DNA of 64,000 nt, from positions 13,927,342 through 13,991,341 of the forward strand of contig NC_081391.1 of NCBI RefSeq assembly GCF_030684315.1. Direction: 5' to 3'. The notes below the pieces were generated by a model. That model had not been told where the DNA came from. It saw nothing but the letters and a program-made list of their open reading frames with translations, and did not search any database. Origin of the DNA: Stegostoma tigrinum. Lineage: Eukaryota. A program made the position numbers and the translations under genes. Shown here one piece after another: positions 1-62,886 of this stretch. How positions within the stretch are numbered: position 1 is the stretch's first letter; each line of letters starts with the position of its first letter.

Positions 1-3000
1 ATCTCTATCAGTCTTTGGTGAGTGGTGTCTCTGTTGGGTGAAACATACTTCTGTTCTGTTGAAGTGAACTCTACCCCTTGGATGTAATTAAGTTGTCTAT
101 CTTTTATAGACTGAGTTTTGTGGCTCCTACCTCTTTCTCAATGCAGGATGAGTGTGATGTTACTGTAACAATAGTTTGGTGTCCAATGTTACTCTAACTT
201 GGGTCCCAGTTGGTTGTCAGTGAGATGTGGAGTGTTCTTGTAGTTACTTGCCTGTCCCATGATGGTGCTGTGACTGGTGGTAATTATAGCTTCCTGTGGC
301 TGTTTGAAACTTGAGGGAACTAATTTAAAAATGAATTGGGACTCACCATTGTGGGAATGGAAGCACCATCAGCTAGTCACTGCTCTTCTTTTCCTTCTTG
401 TATCCTTGCTTGTATTTGAATTTTGTGGTGATCCCAACTTAACATCTCAAATAATCTTGAGAATCTTGATTTCCTATTGCAATCAGCTTAGAATAGGCTT
501 GTTCTAGCCCTACAGAGCTGGGCTGAGAGGTGGCAAATGGAGTTTAATGCAGACAAGTGAGGTGATGCACTTTGGTAGGAGTAACCGGAAGGCAAAGTAC
601 TGGGCTAATGGTAAGATTCTTGGTAATGTAGATGAGCAGAGAGATCTCGGTGTCCACGTAAACAGGTCCTTGAAAGTTGCCATCCAGGTTGATAGGGCGG
701 TTAAGAAGGCAGTGTTTTCTCTTTTGATTAATAGAGGCATTGAGTTCTGGAACCAAGAGGTTATGGTGAAGCTGTACCAAACTCTGGTGTGGCTGCACTT
801 GTAGTATTGTATACAGTTCTGGTCACTGCATTATAAGGATGTGGAAGCTTTGGCAAGAGTGCAGAGGAGGTTTACTAGGATGTTGCCTGGTATCGAGGGA
901 AGCTCTTATGAGGAAAGACTGAGGGACTTGAGGCTGTCTTCATTGGTGAGAAGGTTGAGAGTTGACTTAATTGAAACATATAATATTCTGAGGGTTGGAA
1001 AGGGAAATCCTCTTTCTGCGGACGGTGAGCATGAGGGGGCATAGCTGTAAATTGAGGGATGATAGATATAGGACAGATGTCTGAGGTAGTTTCTTTACTC
1101 AGTAGTAAGGGAATGGAATGCTTTGCCTGTGACGGTAGTAGATTTGCCAACTTTAGGTACATTTAAGTCATCATTGGACAAGCATATGGACGTACAGGGA
1201 ATAGTCTAGGTTAGATGGGCTTGAGATCAGTATGACAAGTTGACACAACATCTAGGGCCTGTACTGTGCTGTTATGTTCTAGTTTCAGATTAAACTGGGT
1301 GAGGTTGTGACTGGTATCTGATCAAGCAGATCTCCATTTGAGATCTACTTTGCTTTTTTTCATACTCATGAGGTGGGTGTGGGCTGTCTGTATATGAAGT
1401 GTTGGAGCTTTTCCAAGGCACGGCACTGCCGTGGGGCTGAGAATGTGCGGAGGGTACTGACCCAGTGAATATGGAAAAAATAGCTTATTCCTGTTGTATT
1501 TGGCCTGACTCGAAACTAACTAGCCCCTCTTTCCCCAGGTGGTTGGGTGCCTGTGCCCTTCCAAGGGGTAGAATGTGTTTAGAAGTAACCTTAGTGAGTG
1601 TTGCCGGGTGCTCTCTGGGCTTGTGCTTGTCAGCAGGAAGTCCTGTCATGATGAGGATCAAGTCCCTGTCAGCCCCACTTTGGGAGGTGGCAACAGCTTT
1701 CATTGAGCCAGCAGTTCAGTTTTAATCGCTGACCCATGTTCCTAACACAACTTGGAAGCATGTCCCAAGAGTAAAATCTCCACTATTCTACATCTTCTAA
1801 CTGCCCATTTAAATGGGCAATGATAAATTGTGCTTGTGTTTGCATTTGACAATTAAAGCAACTTTTTTCAGCAGGATTCCCAAGAATGTGTGTCTTAGTA
1901 GCTGCTTCCAATAGCAGACCTGGTAAACCTGAATACATTGAATTGTGAACATCCTGGTTTAGAAATCTACAGGACTTTGCCTGTTGGATTAAGTCAACAG
2001 TAGCATTTCCAGGTTACTGTTTTAATAAGTGATGTTGTCTAGAGAGTAGGTGATCTGCAGGTCACTGTCATATTTGTCATGTGATCAGTTTGTTTTGTCA
2101 ATCATTGTTTCATGTGTAATGGTACAAGTTGCTAGCAGTCTCAGTACAGCTGTTTTAGATGCAGCAGTAAACTGTATCTAGAACAATCCAAAGACTGTCC
2201 CGAGGCAGGCTTTCCTTGGCAGATTCTTGGTGCCCATGTCCTTCATTCATCCCTTCCCCCTCACCCCAGCCACCCCACTACTGCAGCCCTTGTCAAACTA
2301 ATACAGTGCATCCAATTGCATTGATCCTGACTAAGCAGAAAATGTGCTCCTTCCTAGCTGTTAGTTGCAGTGTCTGGGATCTGTTTTCTGGCCTTTGCCA
2401 AAGGAGCAATAGCGTGCCCTGCAGCTGTTCTATTGGTGCACATCCTGCATTCCAGCTTCTGGCATTTCTTGAAACCCTATTCAATCAGTAATTTTCCCAT
2501 TTCTGGTGGAGGTTAATCAGTAAAAACATCAATTCACACTTGTTCTCACCCAATGCTGTGCCAGACCCACTGAGCAATTTGCCAGGAGTTTCAAACCAAA
2601 ATAAAACACATGGTGTTTACAGCTTACCTGGAGGAAGCTGGGATTGTTTTGATTTTTCCAATTCAACAGGAACTGCTCAAAACTGGGTTCTGAATTGTTA
2701 ATGCATCAGGTACTTAACAGCTTATTGTCAATTTGATTTTGAGAATGCTCAAGTAGCCCTGGAGCTCTGAACTAAAATTGGCCCGTGACTTGTTAATGGG
2801 CTTTACCTTGATCTCCCTTCCAGATGTCCTACTTTGACCGGGATGATGTTGCCCTCCCCCATGTCTCCCGCTTCTTCAAACATCAGTCCCAGGAGAAGCG
2901 GGAACATGCAGAGAAGCTGCTGAAATTCCAGAATCAGCGTGGAGGCCGGGTCCTCCTCCAGGATGTGAAGGTTGGAGTTGGGTGGGGTGGGGGTTGGGAT

Positions 3001-5084
3001 GGTAATGGCTGCTCTTGTGGTGTGGTTTCAAGTCAGTGACAAGGTTTTCATTTGAGTCAAATCTTTGTTCGGCCTGTTTGATCTCCTTTTTGAAGCCAGT
3101 GTAGAAAGAAGCCCTTTGGCCCACCATGTCTTTGCTGACCCCACAAACACTAAAGCACTTTAATCCCATTTACCTTCCCTTGGTCCACAGGCCACTGTCC
3201 TGGCACTATGTACTTGTCCAGCTGGACCTTAAACTGATCTGGAGTAGCTGACTCCACCACCATCCAACCCTTTATGTGGTTCATCTCATACTTCTAACCT
3301 CCCCCTCGGAGGAGGGTGAAGAGAACGTTTCCTCCAATCCCCTCTAACCTGCTTACTCCACAAACCTGGTTTCTCTCTGGTCTTGGTGTCTGCCATGGGG
3401 AAGACATTCCATCAACTGGCCACTCTCTATTCTTCAATAGTTACATCAGGTCACTCCCTCAGCCGTTCCTGCTCCACAGAAAATCCCAGCCTATCTAACC
3501 TCCAATCAATGGATCTTGGGCAACAGCCTGGGCAACCTCACCAGCTTCCCCCTGCAGTGCCATCCTGTCCTTGTGACTGGTGAGGCCAAAGAGGGAATAA
3601 TGTGGTGACTAGAAGAACAAACTGTGACAAGACTGGTCCCCTTCCTGTTCCACCACACCCAACTAATAGAGGTTGCTTGCCCTCTGTCACTGTTACACCC
3701 TGTTGACCTTGTCTGAACTTTGAGGGATCTATGGTTGTGGGCCTTTCTTAACTGTTAGCAGCACAACACACTTTGCAAACACCTCGCTGTCCCTTGGATG
3801 AATTAAATAGCCGTGATGTTTCTGATCATCCTGCTCAGGCATGTATGAAGCCACCAGCACAAGTGGTACTTGAACCTTGGCCTTGTCAGCCAGAGACAGG
3901 GGCACTACCACTGTACCATGACAGCATTTAGGATTCACTCGTGAATATCCTCGCAATTCCATCAGATGGACCCTGATGCAAATCTTGTCATTATCCCCCA
4001 CAATGACCTGTTATTCAACTTCCTCCTTCAGATCAAGGACCGACAGGCAAGGTGAAAGCAATTCTGAAGGAACTGTTCTTCAGCTGTGCTCCAGGGCTCC
4101 CTCAGGGGCTAGCAGTGTTCTCAGTGCTAGGGACACAGGTTTTGATCTGGCCTCTGGTGAGGGACTGGTGTTTACATGTCCTCCCCATGTCTGCGTTGGT
4201 GTCCTCATAGTATAAGAGGATTGGCCATCTGAAATGCAGGGTTACAGGAATAGAGGGGGAGTGGGATGAGCTGGGATGCATTTCAGAGCAGTTCTGCACT
4301 GATCGATGTTGTAGAGATTCTGAAGCTTCACTTTCCTTCTTTCCATCCTCAGAAGCCAGAGAGGGATGAGTGGGGTAACAGCCTGCAGGCGATGCAGGTT
4401 GCCCTGGATCTGGAGAAGAATGTGAACCAGAGTTTGCTGGATCTTCACCAACTTGCCACAGCCCAGACTGACCCTCATGTAAGCTTCACCACTTCATTCT
4501 CTTCACTGCTGGTCACTCAGGGCAACACCTTCAATGGTTGGTCTTTTGTGGATTAGAAGTTGCCTGCTGTCTCAGACAAGTGCCATTTGGATCTCTTCAG
4601 ATCCGTACCAATGCTTATAATCTGATCAGCTCAGCAATCAAGTAAAATGGGAATTTGGATTATAATCTAGTAGGAGTGATGAAGTGATATTGGCCACTGA
4701 ATGCTCATCCAGGATTATTGCAGTGGAATGATCACTATCCATCATAATCCAACACAGCATCACTTAACAAACTGCAAGAGCAGTTGAAATACATGGTCCT
4801 CACTGGCATAGTCTCCAGGTGTTGGGTTTTCAGGGTAGTCTAGAGCTCATATGGCTGAGTGTTTTGCAGTAGGAAATCTGAGGTTGTCTTGGATACCATT
4901 AATGTAGCAAGTTGTCATATTCTTGCAGCTGTGTGACTTCCTGGAGACTCACTATTTGGATGAGGAGGTGGAGATCATCAAGCAACTTGGGGACTACATC
5001 ACCAACCTGAAGCGCCTGGGAGCCCCTGAGAATGGGATGGGAGAGTACCTGTTTGACAGGCTCTCCCTGGAGGACAGCAGTTAG
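1..5084 (+). CDS. Ferritin subunit copy 1 (H/M-like, ferroxidase-degenerate), 5'-truncated by window edge; exons <1-17, 2824-2970, 4353-4478, 4929-5084
   Basis: Exons translate to ...LYQSL | [49 protein letters not shown] | [42 protein letters not shown] | [55 protein letters not shown] boundaries fall at the conserved vertebrate ferritin intron positions. Confidence 0.93.
511..1283 (+). mobile_element. CR1-type LINE 3' fragment (degenerate ORF2 C-terminus) in intron 1 of copy 1
   Basis: Translates to EVMHFGRSN...YQTLVWLHL and [38 protein letters not shown], typical of the CR1 ORF2 C-terminus, with frameshifts and stops. Confidence 0.85.
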
Positions 5085-10160: not shown

Positions 10161-10361
10161 TGCACTTGTGCAGGAGGTCAAAGGTCAGTCAGCAATTCTA
10201 TCATCGACCAGTTGTCAATTCTGATCGTTTTCTGGATCCAATTCCCATCCTGCACTGATTGGACGTGGCAGCTGATCAATTGATGAATGAGAGTGATCGG
10301 CCATCACTGATGATGTCATTTCCTGCTCAAGAAAATAAAGGGCTGCTGCTCGAGTATAAAA
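10161..10361 (+). promoter_or_regulatory. Conserved ferritin promoter block, copy 2: DR1 10175-10187, inverted CCAAT, ACGTG, ATCAATTGAT palindrome, TGATGTCA, TATAAAA 10355-10361
   Basis: Motifs read directly. The block is conserved upstream of six copies with TATA about 95-100 bp before the ATG. Function is inferred. Confidence 0.75.
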
Positions 10362-10448: not shown

Positions 10449-13400
10449 ATGGCCTCCCAGATCAGTCAGAACTATCACCAGGATTGTGAAGCTGCTGTCA
10501 ACAAGCAGGTTAATGTGGAGCTCACTGCCTCCTATCTCTATCAGTCTTTGGTGAGTTTTGTCTTGATGGAGTTGAAATTAAATCTATTCTGCAAAAATGA
10601 GCTGATCCTCTTGTTTCTAATTAACTTCATAGTCTTGTAGATTTGAGGAGTTTAAGTTTGCACCTTTAAAAATCATTTTGGGATAAATGTAATGCCCTTT
10701 GGTGACAATGGATTTTGATATTGATGTGCAGTATCTAATTCACCAGCTGGGATTGAGTGATAGATGGAGGGCAAATTGTTCTGTCAATTATTTTACAATT
10801 TACTGCCAGGTCTCTGCCTGGTGGTAACTGTTGTTTTCCTCCCCAGAATTGACCAAACTTTACTAAAATTAGATGTAATGGTGTTGGGAGTTGTAGGCAC
10901 CCCTTGGCTAGTCATCCTGTAACATTTTAATTTACCTTGATCACACTTAATTTGTGCTCTGATCCTAAATACACATGCCAGTTTCCATTCTGTGATGGAG
11001 AATGATGGCAGTGACTGGCTTCTCTGAGCATATGCACTTGTAACTTGCATTGAGGAGGCCTCAGATGTGGACTAGTTGGCTTTCTGCATTCTCAGTTCAT
11101 GAATGGACTGTTAGTGGCCAGGAAGTCACTTGTTGTCCATTCCTCCAATAGATCAATACCCTCCTGTGAGTGCATGCACAGGGTGTCTGGAATAACCTGA
11201 GGTCTTCACTTCACCAAAAAAGGTGAAGAATTGGAGTTTCAAATTCCCACGGTATGGGAAATGGTGCCTTTCTCCAGGGAGCACTGTGCCTATGGCCTCT
11301 CAAAATGGCAGGCTATAATGGTTTGTAAATGTTGAAGCAGCTTTTGAAGGCTGCTAGATAACTGGTAGATAGTGGACACTGGGAGTGCATTCACTCACTC
11401 CCTTCAATGAGGTGGGCTGCTCTGTCCTGCATAGTGTCTACTTTGTGCATGTTGCAGCTCCACTTCTTGGGAAAAAGGGAGAATATTCATCCCTCCATGG
11501 GGCTTATGTCTGAGAAGCATTCTCTTCCCACTCTGAGGATGAAATCCCTGTACCCTTCCCTTTAGCAGGTGGGAACAGCTATCACCAATAAGCCTGTTGG
11601 GTCTTAACTGTTAGTGGTGTCCCATATCAATTGGGCAGCATGTGCCCAAACAACCTACTATTGTATATCTGTGAGATGCAGCTACCCAAGAAAAGCCAGA
11701 GAAATTTACATGACTGTTTTTTGACAAAAGAAACTTCTCAGCCTGATCAGTTGGAACTAGATAACCTGCTCTAACAAGGTGTAGAGCTGGATGAACACAG
11801 CAGGCCAAGCACCATCAGGGGGAGCAGGAAGGCTGATGTTTTGGGCCTGGACCCTTGAGAAATGGGGAGGGGAAGGGGTCCCTGAAATAGGAAGGGGTGG
11901 GGAGGTGAATGGATGAGGGATAAAGAAACAGGTGGTGAGGAGACTCCGGTCTGAGGTAAGGATGGAGCCAATCAAGTCAAGTGAGTTGAGTAGGCCTGTC
12001 CGTGGAGGTGGGGATGGGATTTGAGGTGGCGGGGGTCGGCGGGAGGTTGGGTGGTGTGGGGAAGTAGGTGGGAGGAAGGACGGACCAGTCGGGGAGGTGG
12101 GAACTAGCTGAGCTGTGATTGGGGGAAGGGAGATCTTTCAGCTTAAGTCCTCACTGATACCATTGGGCTGCAGGGTTCCCAAGCAGAATACAAGGTGCTG
12201 TTCCTGCAACCTTTGGGTGGCATTGGAGGCCCAGAATGAACATCAACTGTCCCCTCCTGCCCCTCTGAAGGGGAAGTATTTTGTGACTGGGAGGTGCAGC
12301 TGCTGGTCACGAGCCCAGCATAGGCACTCCACAAAGTGGTGTCAAGCCTCTGCTCGGATTTCCTGATGTAGAGGAGGCCACATTAGGAGCAGTGGATACA
12401 GCATACCTCACTGCAGGTGTGTAGGTCCACTTCGTCTTGATGTGGAAGGTCTTGGGGCCTGGGATGAGGGGAGGTGTAGCACAATCTGTGTGGCAGGAAA
12501 AAAGCCCTGGCTAGTGGAATGTACAAGGGAATCAGTGGTCTCTCCAGAAGGCAGCTAAGGTTGGAGAGGTAAAACATGTCTTTGTCAGATTGTAGATTGT
12601 ATAAGTGCCAGAGGATGATGCACTGGATCCTGGCATTGAGGTGGTACTGAAGGATGAGAGGATTCTGTTTTGGTTGTGTGAGGGATAAGATGCAAGACCG
12701 GTTGTGTTTATCTTCCACTAAAGGGAAGTTACGCTCCCTCGGAAAACGAGGACATCTGGGATGCCCAGGAGTAGAATGCCTCCCCTCGGGGCTGGAGGTG
12801 AAGGAATTGGATTAGGGGATGGCGTTTTCCTTCCACAGGAAGGTGGGTAAGGTGTATTCTAGGTAGCTGTAGGAGTCAGTAGGTTTGAAATATATCAAAG
12901 ATTGATAGACAAACTTAAGGTTGAGGTAGAAGGCTCTAATGAATTAGAGGAACCGTTCAAGCTCCTTTGTGGGATGTAATGGAGGAAGATGTGGAGTTTA
13001 TGGCCCATCTCCCTGTAGAAGGATTGTTCCACAAATCCTAACAGAAGCAGGCACAGCCTGGGCCCATGCAGGTACCTATGGCCACCCCCTTCCTCTGTAG
13101 GAGGTGGGAGGAATTGAAGGAGAAGTTAGGGGTGAGGATGAGTTGGCTAGTGGACAAGGTTGTTGGTGAATGGGGACCAGTCAGACCTGCAGGATGAGAG
13201 AAGCAGAGGGCCTTAGGCTATCTCCATGGGGAATGGATGAGGTTGGAGGCTGTGGCTGGGAGGTCATCTCCAGTGAAGTTGTAAATGGACTAGGAGATGG
13301 TTTGGTGGTCAGGGGTGGAGTCATGATCAAGGGCGGGGTGGTAGGAGGTATCGGCTGCTCTTCCACACAAGTAAATGTGGCACTCCAGCTCCTGGCATTT

Positions 13401-15027
13401 CCTTAAACCCTGTTCAGTCACAAACTTCATCCAATTCTGATGGTGCTTAGAGTGGAAATGCTCTTCTCTCTACAGACAAGAACAGGCATGGTCAATTCAC
13501 AGGTTTTGGTCAAGGAATTTCAAGTTTGCCTGGTTACCAGGAGGAGGCGAGGGTTGTTTTTGATGATCCTTGAACTGGAGCCACTGGCTAATTGGACAAT
13601 GGTTCTCATCCACCTTGATGTATTTAAAAAAACATGTCATGTTTATTGACTTCTCAATTTGATTGAAGGCTAAACCAGTCATGTCTGGCACCAATTGCAT
13701 GATGTTTAATGGTTGTAACTTGTTTTCTCCCAGATGTCCTACTTTGACCGGGATGATGTTGCCCTCCCCCATGTCTCCCAGTTCTTCCAAGATCAGTCCC
13801 AGGAGAAGCAGGAACATGCAGAGAAGCTGCTGAAATTCCAGAATCAGCGTGGAGGCAGAGTCCTCCTCCAGGATGTGAAGGCTGGTGTTGGGTTTTTGGG
13901 GTGGGGGGAGTTGGGTGGTAGAGAGTGGCTGCTCCTCAGGGATGGCACAGTGACTCGGTGTTTACCATGCATGCCTCAGTGCCAGGGATCCAAGTTTTGT
14001 TCTTGGTTCTAGGCTCCAGTGAACGACTGGAGTTTACTTGTTCTTGCCATGTCCACATTGGCTTCACGGTTCAATGACGTGTGGGTTAGAAGGATTGCCA
14101 TTTAAAATGCAGGGTTACAGGAATAAGGTGGGATTGTTCACAGAAGGGACTTGTAGCGACGAACGCAGTGGCCGTACCTGCTGATCGGGGATGAATAAAA
14201 CGATGTAGTGACCTTTGTTATTGTCACCATGTGTCAAATAGCCTGTTCCCATGCTGCAGAGATTCTGAAGCTTACCTGTCCTTCTCTCCATCCCCAGAAG
14301 CCAGAGAGGGCTGAGTGGGGTAACAGCCTGCAGGCAATGCAGGTTGCCCTGGATCTGGAGAAGAATGTGAACCAGAGTTTGCTGGATCTACACCAACTCG
14401 CCACAGCCCAGACTGACCCTCATGTGAGCTTTCCCACCTCCTCGTTCTGATCACTGCTAGGCCCTCAGGGCAACACCTCATTGGTCTTTTGTAGATTAAA
14501 ATTCACTGGGATACTTTGATCACAATATCATATCTGAACAGTATGTTCATTTAATCAACATTAAAACAGCTCAGCAATGAGCTGAAATGGGAATTTGGAT
14601 TCAGTACCACGAGTGATGTTGGCCACTGAATTCACTTTCAGGGCCACTTGCAGTAGAATGATCATTGTCTGTCACAGTTCAGCTCGGCTCCACTTCACAA
14701 ACAACAAGGTGCATCTGGAATGTTACTGTCCTCCCTGGCGCAACATCTAGATGTCAGTGGCTTTTCCAGCTGTCGAGAGCCAGTTATGGTGGGGTCTGTT
14801 TCGCAGTGGGAATTCTGAAAATTTCCTGGATCATGCAAATGTACCAAGTTGCCATAATTCCTCTGTTGCAGCTGTGTGACTTCCTGGAGACCCACTATTT
14901 GGATGAGGAGGTGGAGATCATCAAGCAACTTGGGGACTACATCACCAACCTGAAGCGCCTGGGAGCCCCTGAGAATGGGATGGGAGAGTACCTGTTTGAC
15001 AGGCTCTCCCTGGAGGACAGCAGTTAG
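10449..15027 (+). CDS. Ferritin subunit copy 2; exons 10449-10550, 13734-13880, 14298-14423, 14872-15027 (176 aa); GC donor after exon 2
   Basis: [34 protein letters not shown] plus intact exons 2-4. The intron-2 donor reads AAG|GCTGGT rather than AAG|GTTGG. Confidence 0.88.
11772..13345 (-). mobile_element. Degenerate Penelope-like retroelement (RT plus GIY-YIG remnants) in intron 1 of copy 2
   Basis: Minus-strand 13021-13088 reads [13 protein letters not shown].. (cf. PLE RT GxAMGxxMGPxYA). Minus-strand ~12340-12420 reads [20 protein letters not shown] (cf. GIY-YIG VYxIxCxxCxxxYIGET). The terminus is shared with the hairpin elements. Boundaries are approximate. Confidence 0.75.
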
Positions 15028-16616: not shown

Positions 16617-19600
16617 ATGAGTTCCCAGATCAGTCAGAACTATCACCAGGATTGTGAAGCTGCTGTCAAAAGGCAGATTAATGTGGAGCTCACTGCCTCC
16701 TATCTCTATCAGTCTTTGGTGAGTGCTGTCCCTGTGGGGTTAAAACTTGATCTATGTAGTTGAAGTAAATGTTTTCTCTTGAATTTAATTAACTGGACAC
16801 TCTCTCTTTGTAGATTGAGTTTTGTAGTCCTTTCCTAAATATTAATTCAGGATAAGGGCAACGTTACTATACCAATGGGGTTTGATAATGATGTACTCTG
16901 AAGCTGGGTCCCAGTTGGGCTTCAGAGATATGTGGAGGATGAAGTGTCCCTGGAGATATTTACCAGTTTGGTGTTTGAATTGGCAGTAGGTGTCATTCCC
17001 TCTAAGATTACCAAATGTTGGTAGGGTTACTTCAGAAAGGTATTATATTGATCATACTGTGGGACTAGAATCACCCACTGGCTAGTTACCCTCTTTCTGA
17101 CAGGTTTAAGTATCTGATTTTATATTTGCTTGCTTTTGTGGTGATACTTAAATATCAATTCTGATATTGACAATGATAATTCCCTATTGCAGTCTGCTGT
17201 GGCTAATCTGAGCAAACCTACTTGAGGTTAGGCTGTGAGTGACTGGTATCTGACTTTTTAAAGTAGATCTCAGCTGAGGCCTGCTTGGCATTTTGCACTC
17301 CCATCATGAGATGGGTGTGGCCTATCCCTGAACCTGTAGAAAGTTGATCTGCTTTAGTGTGTGGCGTGTTGAAGCTTCTGCAAACCATGTTTGCCTCCTG
17401 CCCCCTCACCCACACCCTGCATCCCCTCTAGCTGCTGGCGTCTGAGATTCATGGTCCAGTCTCTATGCCATCCTGATAGGGAACAAACTGTCCCCTTTAG
17501 CCAGGTGGCAGTGAACCTGTAACTTTCCAATGGGTAGAATGTTTCAGACAGTAGGAACAGCAGATGCTGGAGAATCTGAGATAACAAGGTGTAGAGCTGA
17601 ATGAACACAGCAGGCCAAGCAGCATCAGAGGAGCAGGAAGGCTGATGTCTTGGGGCATGACCCTTCTGAAGGTGGGCCTAGGCCCAAAACAGCAGCCTTC
17701 CTGCTCCTCTGCTTGGCCTGATGTGTTCATCCAGCTCTACATCATCGTATCTCAAGGGGTAGAATGTGTTTGGAAGTTGTGTTGAAGTAACCTTGGTGAG
17801 TGCTGCAGGGGACCTGGTAGATAATTCTCCCTGAAAGGAGGTGGTGAATGCAGTCCCCATGAAGTGGGCTGCACTGTCCTGGATGGTGTCTGCATCTTGA
17901 ATGTTGTAGCTCCACCTCCACAGACACATGGAGAATCTTCTTCACTCTGAGCTTTTGTCTGTTAGAAAGAAGATGCCTCATGACAGATGGATGAAGCCCG
18001 TATAAACTCCATTTGGGAGGTGGGTACAGCTTTCATTGGTGAGCCAGTTGACGGGTTTTAATTACTGACTAGGGTCCCAATTCCCTTGGGGAACACGTGT
18101 GCCAATTATAAAATCCTTCCTATTCTCTCCTGCCACAGCTTGTTCCTACCCCGTTAAACAGACAAGAAATTTTGTTTGACTGCTTCTACATGAAGACAAT
18201 AACTTCCCACCAGGCTTCCTCGACAACAAAACTCTTAGCTCCTGTTTCAAATATCAGAAGAATAGCCCTTCATAAACCTCAAGGCATTGGATTGTGAATA
18301 TCTCGGTTCGGAAGTGAGTCACATGTGGGTGGACAAACAACAGAACGGTGCCAGCTGGGATAAGCCAAACTTTGTTGTCCAGCTTTGTGTTAACTAGTGA
18401 CGTTAGATCAGCCATTATCTGTAGATACAGGTCACATTGGTTCTTTCTCTCCAATGTTTGACCTTCCCTCAGTTTGATTCAATTTGTTTTGTTCATGTGA
18501 CCCTTGTTCTCCCCCTTCTGGATGTGAGTGCACTAATTTTAGTGTGCTATAAACTATAACTGCAACAATCCAGAGGCAGTTACTGGGTAGGTTTTCCTTT
18601 GCACTATCTTGTTGTCGCTTTCTCTCATTCGCCTCTATTATATCTTGTAGTCATAAAATATACCGTACATTCAATCTCCCTGGTTTTGAGGCCACAGAAA
18701 CCTTGCTTCCTCCTGGTTATATTGTTACAGCAGTGTCTAACATGTATTTCCATGCCAGCCCCAAAGGAGCAATAGTGTTACAGCTCCCCTACTCAAGTAT
18801 AGCCTGCACTCCAGCTCCTGGTGCTTGTTTCAGCTGTTTGTTTGGCACTAATATTGTCCAATTCTAATGAAGGTTCGTGAGTGCAAACATGGCTGGATAC
18901 AAGAAGAGCTATAATGCTGTGCCAGGCAGCCTGAGCAATTTACTGTTTGTTTTAAGCCAAACTTTTGCCAGTTTCCAACAGGAAATTGGGATTGTTCTGT
19001 TTGATCCCAGTTGAAGGATCTGCTGGACAGCTGGACATCATTGGGTTCTCAAACATGTTCACATACCAGGCAGTTAGTTTGCTGCAGAAGGCTGAACTAG
19101 AATTTGGAGTCAGTGCTGTGTTTAATGGGCTTTAACATGTTATCTCCCTTCCAGATGTCCTACTTTGACCGGGATGATGTGGCCCTCCCCCACTTCTCCA
19201 GGTTCTTCAAAGATCAGTCCCGGGAGAAGCAGGAACATGCAGAGAAGCTGCTGAAATTCCAGAATCAGCGTGGAGGCCGAGTCCTCCTCCAGGATGTGAA
19301 GGTTGGAGTTGGGTGGGAGGGTTGCAGCTGTGGAGGAGAGAATGGCAGCTCTTGTGGTGCTGCGTCCTGTTGGGATGTGAAAATCCTATTTTGGCCTGGC
19401 TTCCCTGTTTGATTTCTTTTGAAGGCAGTTTCTAAACAAGCCCTATTGTCCACCATGTCTATGCTGCCCACAAACATCAAACTAGATTAACACAATTTCC
19501 TGCACTTAGTCCACAGCCGACTATCTTCTGGCATGAAGAAGTTGTTGAGATTAGGCTTCAATGTTGCTGGAGTAACTGCCTCCACTGACCCCACAGGTAA

Positions 19601-48398: not shown

Positions 48399-48600
48399 TG
48401 CACTTGTACAGGAGGTCAAAGATCATTCAGCAATTCCATCATCGACCAGTTGTCAACCGTGATTCGTTTCTGGATCCAATTCCCATCGTGCACTGATTGG
48501 ACGTGGCAACTGATCAATTGATTAACAAGAGTGATTGGCCATCACTGATGATGTCATTTCCTGCTTCATAAAAAGAGGGTCTGCCCCTGGGGTATAAATA
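48399..48600 (+). promoter_or_regulatory. Promoter block, copy 7: DR1 variant 48413-48425, TATA at 48593
   Basis: Same motif order as the other copies. Confidence 0.72.
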
Positions 48601-48685: not shown

Positions 48686-51600
48686 ATGGCCTCCCAGATC
48701 AGTCAGAACTATCACCAGGATTGTGAAGCTGCTGTCAACAAGCAGATTAATGTGGAGCTCACTGCCTCCTATCTCTATCAGTCTTTGGTGAGTGCTGTCT
48801 CTCGGGGTTAAACATATAAATCTGTTCTGTTGAAGTAAATTCTTTGCCTGGCCTCTAGTGAAGCTGACAATCTAGTAGATTGAGGTTTTGTGGCTCCTAC
48901 CTAAATATCAGTTCAGGATAGAGGTGGTGTTACTGTCACGATGGTGTAGGATACTGATGTATGTTAACTCAGGTCCCAGTTGGCCTTCAGTGGTATCTGG
49001 AGGGTAAAAGCCTCTTGCTTTTGTTTTCTTTCTGACACAAGTTTCCTGACTTCATTTGCCTGATCTCTGTGGTGGTCCTAAACAAACATGCTGATTTTTT
49101 TTAACACTGACAATAACAATAACTTCCCTGTTGCAGTGGCCCTTGTTAGTCTGAACAAACCTGAGGCTAGTCTGTGACTGGTATCTATTTTATGTGGATC
49201 TCCTTCATTGAGGCTGACTTGGCTTTACTTGTATTTATTGAAGATGTGGGTGTGGCCTATCCCGTCCCTACTGAGAGTTGATCTGCTGTGTGTGAGAAAT
49301 GTTGGATCCCCTCTCTGCCCTTCTCCACCCCACACTGGGGCTGCTGGAATGTGCTGAGGCTATTAGCCCAGTGACAGTGAAGGAATGGAGGTTGTTCCCA
49401 TATCATTTAGCTTGACCTAAAACAAAATGTCCCCTCTATCCCAGTGGTGATGTGCTTGTGCCCTTCCAAGGAGTAGACTGTGCTTGGAAGGTATGTGTTG
49501 AAGTAACCTTGGTGAGTGCTGCAGGGGACCTGGTAGGTAATGGACCCTGAAAGGAGGTGGTGAATGCAGTCCCCATGAAGTGGGCTGCTCTGTCCTGGAT
49601 GGTGTCTGCTTCTTGCATGTTGCAGGTCCCCTTCTCCAGACACATGGAGAATATTCATCTCTCTCTGGGCTTGTGCCTGTTGTGAGGAAGTTGTCTTGTA
49701 ATGAGGACTAAGTCCCTATAAGCCTCACTTGGGAGGTGGGACAGCTTTATTGGTGATCCAGTGGTTGGGGTTTAATCACTGTGTCCCAACTCTGTTGGCA
49801 CATGCTTCCCAAGGATAAAATCCCGACTATCTTCTGCCATGACGTGTAACTACCCACTTAAACCAGAGATTTTTGCTTGCCTGACTGTGGTTTTTGGATT
49901 TGTGGATTAAAGTAACTTTTCAGGAGTCCTTCCCCAGAATGTAACTCTTAGCTGATGCTTCCAATAGTGACGATTAGCTCTTAAACCCTTACATCGAATT
50001 GTGAACATGACAGTTTAGATATGAGTCACATGGGCTGAAAGCCGACAGGATTTTTTGCCTGTTTGGGTTAAGTCAGGGCAAGTGCTTTTCCAGGTTACTG
50101 TTTTCACTAGTGACATTATCTACAGGCCGCTCATATTTGACATTTGATCATTTGTTTCAGTCATGTGACTTGGTGCAAGTTTCTGACAGCCTGAGTTTGC
50201 ACTATTTTTCGGCAGAGCAATAACCCACTGCTGCAACGATCCAAAGGCTGTTACTGGGCAGGCTTTCCTTGGCATTATCTTAGTGCTAAACATCATACTG
50301 AAGATAGCGTACCCGTGTAGAGTTAATGTGTACACTTATGTCCAAATCTCATTGATCCTGGGTTTGTAGAAAACATTCTCCCTACTATTCATTGACTAGA
50401 ACAAGGTTCAACATCTTTTTTGAAAGTTTACCTGAAAGGCAAAACACAGTGCCTTGTGGCTCCTCCATCCTGTGTACATCCTGTACGCCAGCTCCTGGCA
50501 CTTCCTGAAACCCTGTTCAACCAGTAACTTCATCCAATTCTGTTGGAGATTAATGAATAGAAGCATGAATTCAGCTCTGTCTCTCCACAAAGGCTGTGCC
50601 AGGCACTCCTGAGCTAATCACCAGTAGATTCAAACCAAAATAAAACAGTATTTTTGGTTCCAGGAGGAAGCTGGACTGTTGTGATTTTGCCCAGTTGCTG
50701 GTGAATTGAACAACACTGGGTTCACAATCTGTTCAGTGTCTGACACATGAGCATGCCTTCTGTCAGTTTGGTTTGAGTGCTCAAGTAGTCTTGTAGTTGA
50801 GAACTGCAATGGGGAGTGAGCCAGTGATGTCGAATGTAACTTGAACTTGTTCTTCCAGATGTCCTACTTTGCCCAAGACGATGTTGCCCTCCCCCATTTC
50901 TCCCAGTTCTTCAAAGATCAGTTCCAGGAGAAGCGGGAACATGCAGAGAAGCTGCTGAAATTCCAGAATCAGCGTGGCGGCCGAGTCCTCCTCCAGGATG
51001 TGAAGGTTGGGGTTGGGTGGTGGGGGAGTGCAGGGTGGAATGGCTGCTCTTGCGGTGTCATCTCCAGTGACAAGATTTTCAGATCCTGAGCGAGTGTGGA
51101 AAGTTCTTTTGCTTGGCTTCCCTGTTTGCTCTCCTCCATCTCCAGTGTTTCAGCATTTATACAAGCCTGACTTCCATCAAACAACCACCTCAGCCTCACC
51201 TGCTCAAAGGACAAGGAAAACCCCAGCCCGTCCAATCTCTCTCCTCACAATGGATTTTCTGTCTCGGGGAAACAACCTGGGGACCCTCACCAGCACCCCC
51301 TGCAGTGCTATCCTGTCCTTCTGACTAGCGAGGCCAAAGATAGAATACAGCAGAGACCGGGAGAAGAATTTTCATAAAATGTGTTCAAAGGACTTGTCCC
51401 TGTGCTGTTCCTCACAACCCTGCCCCAAACTAACACATGTTACTTGGCCTATGTCCCCTTTCACACACAGTTTGCCTTGTGTGAGCATTGAGGGATCGAT
51501 GATCCTGTGTTTATTGTAAGCACATTACTGCCCCCCACAATGAATTCAAGTAATGATGGTTCTGACCATGCCGCTCGGGCATGTATGAGGCCACAAGCAC

Positions 51601-52888
51601 AAGTGAGACTTGAACCTCAGCCTTGTCAACCGGAGCTTGGGACACGACCGCTACTTCCCCCACAGCCCTTGGGATTCACTCATGAATATCCTTTTTAAGA
51701 CTCCAGCAGATGGACACTGGTGCAAATGACTAATCTGGTACATATTTATTCCCTGTGGTACAAGGATATGTTCCTGAACTTCCGGCTTCAGGTCAAGGAT
51801 AAATGGGGCAAGGTGAAAGGAGTCACCAAGTAGCTAATGTTTTCTTTATCTGGACTTCAGGGATGGCACAGTGGCTCAGTGGTTGGCACTGTTGACTCAG
51901 TGCCAGGGGTACCAGTTTGGTTCTGGCCCGTGACGAGAGTTTAAACGTTATCCCAAAGCATGGCTTCCCCACACAGTAGAAAAGAGGATTGGCAACTTGA
52001 AATGCAGGTTACACGAACAGGGTGGGAATGGGACCAGATGGGATGCTCTTCAGCAGTTATGGTCTCAGTGGGGTGAATGGCCTGCTCCCATGCTGCAGGG
52101 ATTCTGTTTCTGAAGCTTACCTGTCCTTCTCTCCATCCATAGAAGCCAGAGAGGGATGACTGGGGTAACAGCCTGCAGGCAATTCAGGTTGCCCTGAATC
52201 TGGAAAAGAATGTGAACCAGAGTTTGCTGGATCTACACCAACTCGCCACAGCCCAGACTGACCCTCATGTCAGCTTCACCTCCTCATTCACATCACTGCT
52301 AGACCCTCAAGGTAACGTTTCATTGGTTGGTCTGTGTGGATTGGAAATTCACTGAAGTAACACTTTCCATCCATTACTTTCCTGAACTATTGTAACATTG
52401 ATCACTTGGGATCATACTGATTACAATGAGGTATAAGGGGAATTTGATCTATAATCTAGTGGAAGTGCTGAAATGACGTTGGCCACTGAGTTCTTCATTA
52501 GTATCATTGCAGTGGAATGATCATTGTCCATCACAATCCAACTCAGCTCCATTTCACAAACAGCAAGATGGAGCAGCTGACATGTTGTCCTCACTGGCAC
52601 AAATTCTCCAGGTGTTAGCTCGCTTTTCAGGGCTGTCCAGAGCTAGTCATGGCTAAGTCTGTCTTGCAGTGGGAATTCTGAAATTGTCGTGGATAGTATA
52701 AATGTACCAAGTGTCATATTCCTCTGTTGCAGCTGTGTGACTTCCTGGAGACTCACTATTTGGATGAGGAGGTGGAGATCATCAAGCAACTTGGGGACTA
52801 CATCACCAACCTGAAGCGCCTGGGAGCCCCTGAGAATGGGATGGGAGAGTACCTGTTTGACAGGCTCTCCCTGGAGGACAGCAGTTAG
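48686..52888 (+). CDS. Ferritin subunit copy 7; exons 48686-48787, 50859-51005, 52143-52268, 52733-52888
   Basis: Intact frame and GT-AG sites. Exon 2 reads [28 protein letters not shown]; exon 3 reads [22 protein letters not shown]. Confidence 0.92.
51860..52105 (+). mobile_element. tRNA-derived SINE remnant at the end of intron 2 (homologues at ~4100-4320, 20365-20600, 27380-27610, 35890-36110, 44060-44280)
   Basis: A-box-like GGCACAGTGGCTCAGTGGTTGGCACTG head, followed by a body and tail (GAATGGCCTG...GGGATTCT) resembling elasmobranch SINEs. Confidence 0.55.
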
Positions 52889-58013: not shown

Positions 58014-58214
58014 TGCACTTGTGCAGGAGGTCAAAGGTCAGTCAGCAATTCCATCATCGACCAGTTGTCAATTCTGATCGGTTTCTGGATCCAATTCCCA
58101 TCCTGCACTGATTGGACGTGGCAGCTGATCAATTGATTAACAAGAGTGATCGGCCATCACTGATGATGTCATTTCCTGCTCAAGAAAATAAAGGGCTGCT
58201 GCTCGAGTATAAAA
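58014..58214 (+). promoter_or_regulatory. Promoter block, copy 8: DR1 58028-58040, TATA at 58208
   Basis: Near-identical to the copy 2 block. Confidence 0.75.
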
Positions 58215-58309: not shown

Positions 58310-61300
58310 ATGGCCTCCCAGATCAGTCAGAACTATCACCAGGATTGTGAAGCTGCTGTCAACAAGCAGGTTAATGTGGAGCTCACTGCCTCCTATCTCT
58401 ATCAGTCTTTGGTGAGTTTTGTCTTGATGGAGTTGAAATTAAATCTATTCTGCAAAAATGCGCTGATCCTCTTGTTTCTAATTAACTTCATAGTCTTGTA
58501 GATTTGAGGAGTTTAAGTTTGCACCTTGAAAAATCATTTTGGGATAAATGTAATGCCCTTTGGTGACAATGGATTTTGATATTGATGTGCAGTATCTAAT
58601 TCACCAGCTGGGATTGAGTGATAGATGGAGGGCAAATTGTTCTGTCAATTATTTTACAATTTACTGCCAGGTCTCTGCCTGGTGGTAACTCGTTTTCCTC
58701 CCCAGAATTGACCAAACTTTACTAAAATTAGATGTAATGGTGTTGGGAGTTGTAGGCACCCCTTGGCTAGTCATCCTGTAACATTTTAATTTACCTTGAT
58801 CACACTTAATTTGTGCTCTGATCCTAAATACACATGCCAGTTTCCATTCTGTGATGGAGAATGATGGCAGTGACTGGCTTCTCTGAGCATATGCAGTTGT
58901 AACTTGCATTGAGGAGGCCTCAGATGTGGACTAGTTGGCTTTCTGCATTCTCAGTTCATGAATGGACTGTTAGTGGTCAGGAAGTCACTTGTTGTCCATT
59001 CCTCCAATAGATCAATACCCTCCTGTGAGTGCATGCACAGGGTGTCTGGAATAACCTGAGGTCTTCACTTCACCAAAAAAGGTGAAGAATTGGAGTTTCA
59101 AATTCCCACGGTATGGGAAATAGTGCCTTTCTCCAGGGAGCACTGTGCCTATGGCCTCTCAAAATGGCAGGCTATAATGGTTTGTAAATGTTGAAGCAGC
59201 TTTTGAAGGCTGCTAGATACCTGGTAGATAGTGGACACTGGGAGTGCATTCACTCACTCCCTTCAATGAGGTGGGCTGCTCTGTCCTGCATAGTGTCTAC
59301 TTTGTGCATGTTGCAGCTCCACTTCTTGGGAAAAAGGGAGAATATTCATCCCTCCATGGGGCTTATGTCTGAGAAGCATTCTCTTCCCACTCTGAGGATG
59401 AAATCCCTGTACCCTTCCCTTTAGCAGGTGGGAACAGCTATCACCAATAAGCCTGTTGGGTCTTAACTGTTAGTGGTGTCCCATATCAATTGGGCAGCAT
59501 GTGCCCAAACAACCTACTATTGTATATCTGTGAGATGCAGCTACCCAAGAAAAGCCAGAGAAATTTACATGACTGTTTTTTGACAAAAGAAACTTCTCAG
59601 CCTGATCAGTTGGAACTAGATAACCTGCTCTAACAAGGTGTAGAGCTGGATGAACACAGCAGGCCAAGCACCATCAGGGGGAGCAGGAAGGCTGATGTTT
59701 TGGGCCTGGACCCTTGAGAAATGGGGAGGGGAAGGGGTCCCTGAAATAGGAAGGGGTGGGGAGGTGAATGGATGAGGGATAAAGAAACAGGTGGTGAGGA
59801 GACTCCGGTCTGAGGTAAGGATGGAGCCAATCAAGTCAAGTGAGTTGAGTAGGCCTGTCCGTGGAGGTGGGGATGGGATTTGAGGTGGCGGGGGTCGGCG
59901 GGAGGTGGGGTGGTGTGGGGAAGTAGGTGGGAGGAAGGACGGACCAGTCGGGGAGGTGGGAACTAGCTGAGCTGTGATTGGGGGAAGGGAGATCTTTCAG
60001 CTTAAGTCCTCACTGATACCATTGGGCTGCAGGGTTCCCAAGCAGAATACAAGGTGCTGTTCCTGCAACCTTTGGGTGGCATTGGAGGCCCAGAATGAAC
60101 ATCAACTGTCCCCTCCTGCCCCTCTGAAGGGCAAGTATTTTGTGACTTGGAGGTGCAGCTGCTGGTCACGAGCCCAGCATAGGCACTCCACAAAGTGGTG
60201 TCAAGCCTCTGCTCGGATTTCCTGATGTAGAGGAGGCCACATTAGGAGCAGTGGATACAGCATACCTCACTGCAGGTGTGTAGGTCCACTTCGTCTTGAT
60301 GTGGAAGGTCTTGGGGCCTGGGATGAGGGGAGGTGTAGCACAATCTGTGTGGCAGGAAAAAAGCCCTGGCTAGTGGAATGTACAAGGGAATCAGTGGTCT
60401 CTCCAGAAGGCAGCTAAGGTTGGAGAGGTAAAACATGTCTTTGTCAGATTGTAGATTGTATAAGTGCCAGAGGATGATGCACTGGATCCTGGCATTGAGG
60501 TGATACTGAAGGATGAGAGGATTCTGTTTTGGTTGTGTGAGGGATAAGATGCAAGACCGGTTGTGCTTTTCTTCCACTAAAGGGAAGTTACGCTCCCTCG
60601 GAAAACGAGGACATCTGGGATGCCCAGGAGTAGAATGCCTCCCCTCGGGGCTGGAGGTGAAGGAATTGGATTAGGGGATGGCGTTTTCCTTCCACAGGAA
60701 GGTGGGTAAGGTGTATTCTAGGTAGCTGTAGGAGTCAGTAGGTTTGAAATATATCAACGATTGATCGACAAACTTAAGGTTGAGGTAGAAGGCTCTAATG
60801 AATTAGAGGAACCGTTCAAGCTCCTTTGTGGGATGTAATGGAGGAAGATGTGGAGTTTATGGCCCATCTCCCTGTAGAAGGATTGTTCCACAAATCCTAA
60901 CAGAAGCAGGCACAGCCTGGACCCATGCAGATACCTATGGCCACCCCCTTCCTCTGTAGGAGGTGGGAGGAATTGAAGGAGAAGTTAGGGGTGAGGATGA
61001 GTTGGCTAGTGGACAAGGTTGTTGGTGAATGGGGACCAGTCAGACCTGCAGGATGAGAGAAGCAGAGGGCCTTCGGCTATCTCCATGGGGAATGGATGAG
61101 GTTGGAGGCTGTGGGTGGGAGGTCATCTCCAGTGAAGTTGTAAATGGACGAGGAGATGGTTTGGTGGTCAGGGGTGGAGTCATGATCAAGGGCGGGGTGG
61201 TAGGAGGTATCGGCTGCTCTTCCACACAAGTATATGTGGCACTCCAGCTCCTGGCATTTCCTTAAACCCTGTTCAGTCACAAACTTCTTCCAATTCTGAT

Positions 61301-62886
61301 GGTGCTTAGAGTGGAAATGCTCTTCTCTCTACAGACAAGAACAGGCATGGTCAATTCACAGGTTTTGGTCAAGGAATTTCAAGTTTGCCTGGTTACCAGG
61401 AGGAGGCGAGGGTTGTTTTTGATGATCCTTGAACTGGAGCCACTGGCTAATTGGACAATGGTTCTCATCCACCTTGATGTATTTAAAAAAACATGTCATG
61501 TTTATTGACTTCTCAATTTGATTGAAGGCTAAACCAGTCATGTCTGGCACCAATTGCATGATGTTTAATGGTTGTAACTTGTTTTCTCCCAGATGTCCTA
61601 CTTTGACCGGGATGATGTTGCCCTCCCCCATGTCTCCCAGTTCTTCCAAGATCAGTCCCAGGAGAAGCAGGAACATGCAGAGAAGCTGCTGAAATTCCAG
61701 AATCAGCGTGGAGGCAGAGTCCTCCTCCAGGATGTGAAGGCTGGTGTTGGGTTTTTGGGGTGGGGGGAGTTGGGTGGTAGAGAGTGGCTGCTCCTCAGGG
61801 ATGGCACAGTGACTCGGTGTTTACCATGCATGCCTCAGTGCCAGGGATCCAAGTTTTGTTCTTGGTTCTAGGCTCCAGTGAACGACTGGAGTTTACTTGC
61901 TCTTGCCATGTCCACATTGGCTTCACGGTTCAATGACGTGTGGGTTAGAAGGATTGCCATTTAAAATGCAGGGTTACAGGAATAAGGTGGGATTGTTCAC
62001 AGAAGGGACTTGTAGCGACGAACGCAGTGGCCGTACCTGCTGATCGGGGATGAATAAAACGATGTAGTGACCTTTGTTATTGTCACCATGTGTCAAATAG
62101 CCTGTTCCCATGCTGCAGAGATTCTGAAGCTTACCTGTCCTTCTCTCCATCCCCAGAAGCCAGAGAGGGCTGAGTGGGGTAACAGCCTGCAGGCGCTGCA
62201 GGTTGCCCTGGATCTGGAGAAGAATGTGAACCAGAGTTTGCTGGATCTACACCAACTCGCCACAGCCCAGACTGACCCTCATGTGAGCTTTCCCACCTCC
62301 TCGTTCTGATCACTGCTAGGCCCTCAGGGCAACACCTCATTGGTCTTTTGTAGATTAAAATTCACTGGGATACTTTGATCACAATATCATATCTGAACAG
62401 TATGTTCATTTAATCAACATTAAAACAGCTCAGCAATGAGCTGAAATGGGAATTTGGATTCAGTACCACGAGTGATGTTGGCCACTGAATTCACTTTCAG
62501 GGCCACTTGCAGTAGAATGATCATTGTCTGTCACAGTTCAGCTCGGCTCCACTTCACAAACAACAAGGTGCATCTGGAATGTTACTGTCCTCCCTGGCGC
62601 AACATCTAGATGTCAGTGGCTTTTCCAGCTGTCGAGAGCCAGTTATGGTGGGGTCTGTTTCGCAGTGGGAATTCTGAAAATTTCCTGGATCATGCAAATG
62701 TACCAAGTTGCCATAATTCCTCTGTTGCAGCTGTGTGACTTCCTGGAGACCCACTATTTGGATGAGGAGGTGGAGATCATCAAGCAACTTGGGGACTACA
62801 TCACCAACCTGAAGCGCCTGGGAGCCCCTGAGAATGGGATGGGAGAGTACCTGTTTGACAGGCTCTCCCTGGAGGACAGCAGTTAG
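58310..62886 (+). CDS. Ferritin subunit copy 8 (near-duplicate of copy 2); exons 58310-58411, 61593-61739, 62157-62282, 62731-62886; GC donor after exon 2
   Basis: Same protein as copy 2 apart from QALQV vs QAMQV. The donor is AAG|GCTGGT. Confidence 0.88.
59631..61205 (-). mobile_element. Degenerate Penelope-like retroelement in intron 1 of copy 8 (duplicate of 11772-13345)
   Basis: Near-identical to the copy 2 insertion. Confidence 0.75.

Follow-up and report, generated by a model that had tools for sequence, protein, structure and literature searches.

Two giant arrays of ferritin genes without iron-responsive elements in the shark Stegostoma tigrinum, one encoding a K62 subunit predicted to lack ferroxidase activity

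Introduction

What does a shark do with a long tandem array of ferritin genes whose leaders contain no iron-responsive element (IRE) and whose products have a degenerate di-iron site? This question is raised by a stretch of 64,000 nucleotides of Stegostoma tigrinum (contig NC_081391.1, positions 13,927,342 to 13,991,341; hereafter the window), for which a preliminary description had proposed a neofunctionalised protein cage without being able to say whether the array had been described. Arrays of this kind had been. Yang et al. (2026, PNAS, PMC13214024) reported raised ferritin copy numbers in sharks generally, with 59 copies of FTH1b in the Greenland shark, a number which they call the highest of 13 species (S. 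tigrinum among them), and offered the expansion as a longevity/ferroptosis candidate in the Greenland shark. Like the genes studied here, FTH1b comprises four-exon ferritins in many copies, which on one chromosome make up two tandem clusters (55 and 4 copies in the Greenland shark), and it is almost certainly the same locus family. However, that study regarded FTH1b as a single H-type family of similar function, whereas two clades were found here; the split into a dead and an active clade, the loss of the IRE and a count near 370 do not appear in the main text of PMC13214024, in which the terms 'ferroxidase', 'IRE' and 'oocyte' occur 0 times. Literature searches for ferritin arrays in sharks returned none but also missed PMC13214024 and are therefore a weak test; 'ferritin' is absent from the main text of PMC11979771, PMC10620051, PMC8455134, PMC10015161 and 10.1101/2025.02.19.638963.

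Results and Discussion

At least eight intron-containing ferritin genes had been counted in the window. Eight four-exon genes, all on the + strand, were identified (Table 1), with exons of 102, 147, 126 and 156 nt, a protein of 176 amino acids and exon boundaries identical to those of the genome's two IRE genes. Due to the frameshift of copy 6 (a 1-nt deletion in exon 2) and the GC donors of copies 2, 3 and 8, only copies 4, 5 and 7 of the seven complete genes are fully canonical. A dedicated conserved promoter, previously noticed for all copies with a visible leader except copy 3, indeed precedes six of the seven visible leaders and is missing in copy 3. The promoters contain an octamer which we take to be CRE/ATF-like. 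As a tissue marker the promoter pattern was rejected: its off-array matches outside ferritin genes were close to chance (at least 22 among those listed off contig C50, 13 in the control), so that it names no tissue.

Table 1. Ferritin genes and conserved promoters in the window (left edges of promoters are approximate)
Feature	Position	Strand	Exons	Remarks
Ferritin gene 1	1..5084	+	1-17, 2824-2970, 4353-4478, 4929-5084	window edge leaves last 17 nt of exon 1
Gene 2 promoter	10190..10360	+		CCAAT-like boxes, E-box-like hexamers, TGATGTCA, TATA at 10355
Ferritin gene 2	10449..15027	+	10449-10550, 13734-13880, 14298-14423, 14872-15027	frame open; intron 2 GC donor, weak
Ferritin gene 3	16617..21345	+	16617-16718, 19155-19301, 20632-20757, 21190-21345	frame open; no conserved promoter; intron 3 GC donor; R23 kept
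Gene 4 promoter	23290..23455	+		conserved; TATA at 23450
Ferritin gene 4	23553..28391	+	23553-23654, 26004-26150, 27647-27772, 28236-28391	intact; introns GT-AG
Gene 5 promoter	31460..31630	+		conserved; TATA at 31625
Ferritin gene 5	31719..36890	+	31719-31820, 34614-34760, 36145-36270, 36735-36890	intact; introns GT-AG
Gene 6 promoter	39610..39781	+		conserved; TATA at 39776
Ferritin gene 6	39870..45041	+	39870-39971, 42782-42927, 44310-44435, 44886-45041	exon 2 of 146 nt, frameshifted; probable pseudogene
Gene 7 promoter	48430..48598	+		conserved; TATA at 48593
Ferritin gene 7	48686..52888	+	48686-48787, 50859-51005, 52143-52268, 52733-52888	intact; introns GT-AG
Gene 8 promoter	58045..58213	+		conserved; TATA at 58208
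Ferritin gene 8	58310..62886	+	58310-58411, 61593-61739, 62157-62282, 62731-62886	intron 2 GC donor, weak

The repeat, suspected to continue past both edges of the window, goes on for ~940 kb on the left side and ~410 kb on the right. This array (array 1) is far larger than had been claimed, 1.4 Mb on a single strand (+), and the window is one slice of it; 161 matches to exon 1 and 151 to the conserved promoter were obtained, all on the + strand, with 0 in the controls. A second array (array 2), 5.5 Mb from the first on the same small chromosome, gave 207 exon-1 matches (~200 ferritins). It shares the promoter core with array 1. The family total in this genome amounts to ~370 motif matches, while exon 4 was matched 384 times genome-wide. 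The array contig also bears SNRNP70, a RUVBL gene and a BAX-like gene, the set that neighbours human FTL; glycogen synthase, used as a synteny marker, matched on contigs C20 and C33 only and not on C50. With one exon-4 match on C20, the assignment of H and L genes to a common chromosome in PMC13214024 was not reproduced here.

It is highly improbable that most of these copies are assembly artefacts. A duplicated 12.9-kb block (95% identity) holds gene 8 as a near copy of gene 2, and blocks 127 kb apart are 99.6-99.99% identical. One 6.5-kb pair among the latter, differing at 1 base, and contig C216, which may duplicate part of array 2, would suit an artefact. However, 12 types of intron 3 occur among 29 sampled genes (mean divergence 0.24 among divergent pairs), the most diverged copies are those at the array edges, and many copies are present in independent assemblies of other sharks. 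It is less far-fetched, though still unlikely, that unequal crossing-over and birth-and-death turnover have generated most of the copy number as a by-product, few copies being functional and dosage not being selected. Intact frames were found in 21 of the 29 sampled genes and broken ones in eight, despite a bias of the sample towards intact genes; the nearly identical blocks and the wide variation in copy number between the Greenland shark (59 members) and S. tigrinum (~370 matches) point in the same direction, and gene conversion can make redundant copies look intact. On the other hand, pN/pS was 0.28 over 210 pairs of the 21 intact genes (0.22 for shared variants), promoter matches stand at 151 versus 161 for exon 1, and the occurrence of multiple K62 copies in several shark orders also speaks against a mere by-product, which accounts for the number but leaves the retention of K62 unexplained. 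Array copies are under purifying selection rather than near the dN/dS of 1 which the preliminary description had named as adverse to its proposal; their exons look as if homogenised by gene conversion.

To what extent the encoded proteins can oxidise iron was judged from their residues (numbering of human H). K62 was present in all 38 readable array-1 exon-2 matches (3 of 41 were unreadable), and E107, E141, I144 and L173 in 38 of 38 each, in agreement with the earlier statement that every copy has K62 and E141; within the window, both residues occur in all copies that could be read. In array 2, E62 and Q141 were found in 18 of 18 readable matches. Array 2 shows the M residue pattern, retains E57, E61 and E64 and possesses the complete ferroxidase centre (E27, Y34, E61, E62, H65, E107, Q141), of which array 1 falls short by K62 and E141. 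The K62 subunit is hence predicted to lack ferroxidase activity, yet one metal site may survive since E27, Y34, H65 and E107 are kept. L173, the leucine of the four-fold pore, occurs in both arrays.

Because a single-sequence fold of the array-1 protein gave a pLDDT of only 42, an alignment-based model was used instead (pLDDT 90). Its helices (11-38, 46-72, 93-120, 124-154, 161-172) form a four-helix bundle plus a short E helix. The closest solved structures are the M ferritins of fish and amphibians, which have the same length and ~70% identity (TM 0.94 to frog M ferritin); M chains, however, keep the full ferroxidase centre (PMC4117605), which array 1 does not. At position 23, Lys or Asn replaces the NCOA4-binding R23. 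Lys for Arg is a conservative substitution, and R23A is the only change of this residue tested in PMC4592949.

In some respects array 1 resembles mammalian FTL. Alignment with human L revealed the same E141, hydrophobic residue 144 and Leu 173, and the K62/E107 pair of L chains is present by residues, suggesting a salt bridge; for L chains, a K58-E103 salt bridge and a Leu169 pore have been described (PMC2603009). By contrast, FTL is single-copy and IRE-controlled while array 1 is multi-copy and IRE-less. FTL has also lost E27 and H65. Of the L nucleation glutamates, 61 and 64 are kept in array 1, but position 57 is Asp or His and 60 mostly Gln, while FTL has both E57 and E60; E60 is present in lamniform members of the K62 clade. 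The earlier suggestion of an L-like mineralisation partner is thereby weakened, and with two nucleation glutamates missing, the array-1 subunit probably acts as a stabiliser and not as a nucleator.

The K62 protein, having neither the full catalytic site nor the L nucleation set, might instead build a cage of its own for a role other than iron oxidation, such as that of a structural protein or nutrient made in bulk or of a depot for another ligand. The separation of array 1 from array 2, its maintenance across 12 shark species and the existence of atypical IRE-less invertebrate ferritins with E62K (PMC8395497) would be in line with this. We nevertheless regard it as unlikely, no more and no less so than a mere by-product of crossing-over. 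Nearly every row of the K62 clade, in which channel and pore residues are conserved, retains H118, C130, D131 and E134 of the three-fold channel, which would be expected of a cage that iron still enters; the core of the promoter is common with the iron-competent array 2, and neither a signal peptide nor new metal-binding residues are apparent in the K62-clade proteins (2 Cys, 7 His).

The claim that the leaders lack an IRE held throughout. None of 12 Rfam matches in the window at E<=5 was an IRE, and a relaxed stem-loop scan recovered none in 30 array leaders (array 1: 0 of 15) compared to two of two canonical ferritin leaders. Among 82 candidates scored genome-wide, only two IRE-bearing ferritin genes were found. 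Since one of them is a separate, catalytically intact M-type gene, the L-like residues of array 1 are probably convergent with FTL. Judged by leaders and residues, the loss of the IRE is not tied to the loss of catalysis, because the larger sister array 2 is also IRE-less but has its catalytic residues intact. Of the proposed neofunctionalised cage, dosage amplification, IRE loss, degenerate di-iron site and dedicated promoter thus remain, while the coupling of IRE loss to catalytic loss has to be abandoned.

All 45 aligned cluster members, which come from 11 shark species, have K62, and so does Mustelus (12 species in total); as these sequence clusters mix species, cluster size is not the copy number per species. 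The K62 clade has a support of 99. An H clade of bird, amphibian and teleost sequences (support 99) includes the C20 gene and excludes array 1, and the sister link between the two arrays has a support of 82 in a tree without the mammalian L chain. By alignment, K62 defines an old shark clade and E141 and I144 are additions of carpet sharks. K62 and E141, described as a joint hallmark, are therefore to be separated: the former marks the clade, the latter came late.

Silence of all copies, which would have been at odds with the proposed function, is made unlikely by spliced transcripts of close relatives: contigs ~95% alike joined exons 2 and 3 in three of the four sequencing runs examined. Among 36 matched family members of the Greenland shark, 31 were without any read in fin and 33 without any in blood (PMC13214024 Dataset S4), values which refer to another species, to these two tissues and to K62 and E62 copies pooled. 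Expression looks restricted in tissue, and a blood-cell role is, like a general somatic one, disfavoured by this near silence. All five intronless copies examined derive from the arrays (two from array 1, three from array 2) and none from the IRE genes; they stem from searches in which 150 of 1252 candidates were scored, one with an array-1 query. Array-derived retrocopies imply transcripts in the germline, and their source could be the male germline or the early embryo. A CPE-like motif was detected in only two of 38 3' UTRs. In eggs of fish, amphibians and invertebrates, ferritin is abundant (PMC1488847).

The arrays could be a reserve against oxidants or ferroptosis in somatic tissue, perhaps inducible by stress. 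Such a role has been put forward in print for Greenland shark FTH1b (PMC13214024) and also for fthl27 of the hadal snailfish, overexpression of which lowered ROS (PMC10746142). For the arrays studied here we consider such a reserve quite improbable, since expression in fin and blood is near zero. The promoter octamer, if it is CRE/ATF-like as presumed, would agree with it. However, ferroxidase activity is the source of ferritin's protective effect, and the K62 clade is predicted to be devoid of it. Moreover, the count is far above 59 in a species for which we know of no extreme lifespan. Sahm et al. (2024) are likewise said to have reported a ferritin expansion.

Tandem expansion as such is known in a teleost, the snailfish fthl27 array of 14 copies, which the array here surpasses more than tenfold. 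Mouse Fthl17 genes are intronless derivatives of the H gene encoding ferroxidase-less proteins, and yolk ferritins are secreted; array-1 genes differ from these by their introns, their position outside the H clade and the lack of an apparent signal peptide. Fthl17 forms a seven-gene cluster expressed in the early embryo (PMC2887969), and PMC1488847 cites yolk ferritins as well as ferritin mRNAs of schistosomes that lack an IRE.

In our preferred reading, which is tentative (probability roughly 0.45), array 1 comprises ~160 IRE-less K62 genes whose products are likely to co-assemble with array-2 subunits into stable iron-storage cages, likely produced in bulk by a restricted tissue, most plausibly the oocyte; both oocyte use and co-assembly are inferred. 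K62 would pair with E107 and, as happens in mammalian L chains, fill the di-iron site, with E141 and I144 added in carpet sharks. Without an IRE, copy number and promoter and not the iron level would determine the output, and the common promoter would turn on both arrays in the same cell. In mixed 24-mers, array 2 would oxidise the iron and array 1 add stability, while Lys or Asn instead of R23 might slow lysosomal turnover and suit long storage. Unequal crossing-over would alter the copy number and gene conversion maintain the likeness of exons. Two observations count against co-assembly: the M-like array 2 is self-sufficient (E57, E61, E64) and has no obvious need of a partner, and array 1, lacking E57 and E60, is no better nucleator.

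Conclusions

The expanded ferritin family of sharks is not uniform: one clade has its catalytic residues intact, the other is the old K62 clade, and iron-responsive control is missing from both. That the four-copy cluster of the Greenland shark belongs to the K62 clade is a guess. The ~370 matches are roughly six times the 59 copies on which the longevity idea is based, and in the fin and blood data of PMC13214024 itself the copies are nearly silent. Clade split and silence make this idea directly testable. The arrays clearly exemplify concerted evolution that is focused on the exons of protein-coding genes, and with the K62 clade an L-type ferritin subunit has probably arisen in vertebrates for a second time, independently of the first. 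As a speculation which we think rather doubtful, sharks may have reinvented the two-subunit ferritin (active plus L-like) as two giant IRE-free arrays by which their very large, yolky eggs are loaded with iron; copy number would then track maternal provisioning and not lifespan, and the 59 copies of the Greenland shark would be unexceptional beside ~370. The arrays in any case raise a neglected question, the iron supply of shark eggs.

Extent of the arrays and genes in the window

The K62 ferritin array (array 1; residues follow human H numbering) is real, selected and old. The window, C50:13,927,342-13,991,341, contains eight ferritin genes of four exons each on the plus strand, spaced by about 8 kb; the preliminary description had claimed at least eight intron-containing genes in 64 kb. 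Its repeat does run past both window edges: a pattern for exon 1 of array 1 gave 161 matches, every one on the plus strand (control, 0). Among the 100 matches listed, the first lies at position 12,987,212 of contig C50, and the last gene found at the right ends near 14.404 Mb. Ferritin exons were absent from the 10-kb probes beyond the array, three to the left and four to the right. Long simple-repeat tracts rich in CA/TG and CT lie at both flanks (stretches L023-L024 and L032).

The second array (array 2) yielded 207 exon-1 matches, and an independent exon-4 pattern 384 across the genome; these figures, like the 161 matches of array 1 and the 151 of the promoter pattern, are motif counts and not curated genes. 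As three pairs of stretches of array 1, 127 kb apart, are 99.6-99.99% identical, the exact copy number needs read depth. The 29 genes sampled represent 12 intron-3 types, and most copies are distinct from one another. Array 2 lacks IREs, has the full ferroxidase set together with M144 and L173, and its end adjoins an IRE-bearing M-type gene. Between array 2 and this IRE gene, which it faces, lies a single ferritin gene of a further, distinct type, similar to the last domain of the Heterodontus protein P0001.

Within the window, gene 1 is truncated by the left edge, gene 6 carries a frameshift, a weak GC donor occurs in genes 2 and 8, and the conserved promoter is missing upstream of gene 3 (window position 16617). 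Open frames duplicated together with the ferritin genes are presumably, by their appearance, LINE reverse-transcriptase fragments (Table). In databases, proteins of the array-1 type bear the species name Stegostoma tigrinum and the label 'ferritin, middle/heavy subunit-like', and thus the genes are already annotated, if only generically. Since many of these models are fused, truncated or frame-shifted (P0002-P0005, P0007, P0010, P0013, P0018), shark copy counts taken from annotation are unreliable.

Table. Location of features in the window and elsewhere in the assembly (C, contig; L, stretch of assembly DNA)
Feature	Location	Strand	Remark
LINE reverse-transcriptase-like open frame	window:8092-8862	-	duplicated with ferritin genes
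LINE reverse-transcriptase-like open frame	window:55945-56715	-	duplicated with ferritin genes
LINE reverse-transcriptase-like open frame	window:46671-47813	+	duplicated with ferritin genes
Further pieces of the same frames	intron 1 of genes 1, 5, 6
Array 2	C50:19.95-21.6 Mb; C216	both
Ferritin gene of distinct type	C50 ~21.59-21.60 Mb; L063:6675-6758, L064:6174-7907
BAX-like gene	C50:26427125-26429077 (L036)		4.8 Mb beyond the arrays
Lone array-2-type exon-4 motif	C17:12130148-12130180		possible further retrocopy

Promoter and loss of the IRE

The claim that the leaders are IRE-less held. An Rfam search detected no IRE in the window, and a relaxed scan was negative for all 15 array-1 and all 15 array-2 leaders but positive for both controls. 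Genome-wide, Rfam revealed two IREs (82 candidates scored), each upstream of a single ferritin gene whose catalytic residues are intact; in the tree, the gene on contig C20 groups with H chains, and the other, which terminates array 2, falls into a shark M-type clade of its own. By eye, a likeness to the 3' arm of the IRE in the M gene is apparent in some array-2 leaders, suggesting that an ancestral IRE decayed in this array.

The dedicated promoter proposed earlier is conserved, with 151 pattern matches. Both arrays have its core in common, in which several CCAAT-like boxes accompany TGATGTCA and a TATA box (putative motif names). The promoter-less copy type is seemingly recurrent in array 1, to judge from 161 exon-1 versus 151 promoter matches and a similar spacing elsewhere.

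Age and selection

In five clusters drawn from 11 shark species, every one of the 45 aligned members has K62 (six others, long or partial, were set aside), and so does Mustelus; E141 and I144 were confined to five carpet sharks in the same alignments. In a quick tree (83 rows, with 3 long and 19 near-duplicate ones removed), the K62 proteins form one clade with a support of 99 that includes the sevengill shark. Its sister, with a support of only 82, is the array-2 clade, which contains one ray and one chimaera protein. Among the best 120 of 1647 matches, no K62-clade protein originated from a ray, chimaera or sawshark. Isolated K62 residues in a lizard ferritin (P0114) and a sevengill array-2 protein (P0065) demonstrate that the change recurs. 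Three ferritins recorded as coming from Salmonella and Aeromonas (P0182, P0185, P0080) are of shark type, two of them with K62 and one identical to a white shark protein; cDNA contamination of bacterial assemblies is the simplest explanation. The sole SNRNP70 match and one RUVBL gene sit between the arrays; these and the BAX-like gene we take to be neighbours of human FTL. A glycogen synthase match is absent from C50.

An intact frame was present in 21 of 29 complete array-1 genes (in 17 of these every intron is GT-AG), a sample biased to intact copies because 19 stretches were chosen by their motif matches. For the 21 intact genes, pN/pS was 0.28 (copies not independent; 38 distinct synonymous variants at 111 sites, 48 non-synonymous at 417), not the value near 1 that the preliminary description had set against its own claim. 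The proportion of differing sites in intron 3 is 0.24 among 161 divergent pairs, versus 0.066 for synonymous sites in the adjoining exons; a comparison of eight types gave 0.015 for exon 4 and 0.25 for mid-intron, and one exon-4 variant occurs in several intron-defined types. This pattern fits exon-focused gene conversion, though codon bias (GC3 0.69) may contribute to exon likeness.

Protein and expression

The model of the array-1 protein shows an ordinary ferritin bundle, with a pLDDT of 90 and a TM of 0.94 against frog M. As described earlier, the copies share K62, seen in 38 of 38 readable exon-2 matches, and E141, which like E107, I144 and L173 occurs in 38 of 38; E27, Y34 and H65 are kept in most copies. 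Seven ferroxidase residues have been listed, and the stability and inactivity of the L chain ascribed to a K58-E103 bridge, 62/107 in H numbering (PMC2603009). Since array 1 has this pair and shares E141, a hydrophobic residue 144 and Leu 173 with human L, its subunit is predicted to be without ferroxidase activity. In its catalytic-site residues array 1 is like an L chain, but by its missing nucleation glutamates 57 and 60 and its missing IRE it is not one; the absence of the two glutamates also weakens the suggestion of an L-like mineralisation partner. Array 2, with E62 and Q141 in 18/18 and E57 in 17/18, fits the M-chain pattern (PMC4117605). NCOA4 binds R23 of human H (PMC4592949); at the matching position (numbering offset by alignment) both arrays have K, and gene 3 alone among the window copies keeps R23.

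Five intronless ferritin copies or fragments were detected on C11, C5 and C2 (L017-L020, L066), one with a poly(A) tract. All derive from the arrays: the best match is array 2 for three of them (83-92%) and array 1 for the other two (80% and 89-91%), and in no case an IRE gene. For a retrocopy to be inherited, its source must be transcribed in the germ line or the early embryo. In three of four sequencing runs, from three other organisms, exons 2 and 3 are joined in contigs of about 95% likeness; these runs, of unlabelled tissue, are guessed to be RNA. In the Greenland shark, 31 of 36 matched family members drew no reads from fin, where the maximum was 4.8 TPM, and 33 of 36 drew none from blood, where it was 21 TPM, versus 1,035 and 12,102 TPM for an unlabelled neighbouring gene (Dataset S4, PMC13214024). 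Fish, amphibian and invertebrate eggs are rich in ferritin (PMC1488847). Only 2 of 38 array-1 3' UTRs contain a CPE-like motif, which counts against an oocyte role.

Raised FTH1b copy numbers in sharks are known: of 13 species compared, the Greenland shark was reported to have the most, 59 copies arranged in two clusters; ferroxidase residues, IREs and oocytes go unmentioned in the main text (PMC13214024). Elsewhere, 14 copies of snailfish fthl27 (PMC10746142), seven mouse Fthl17 genes (PMC2887969) and atypical invertebrate ferritins (PMC8395497) have been reported. As to whether the array had been described, a question the preliminary description left open, the expansion is thus known in outline, but the K62 clade, IRE loss, two-array design and scale appear new to the literature surveyed, as far as its available text goes. 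In the favoured mechanism, whose probability we put slightly below one half (about 0.45), array 1 would supply a quiet, stabilising subunit for ferritin cages, which may be produced in bulk and independently of iron, probably in oocytes.
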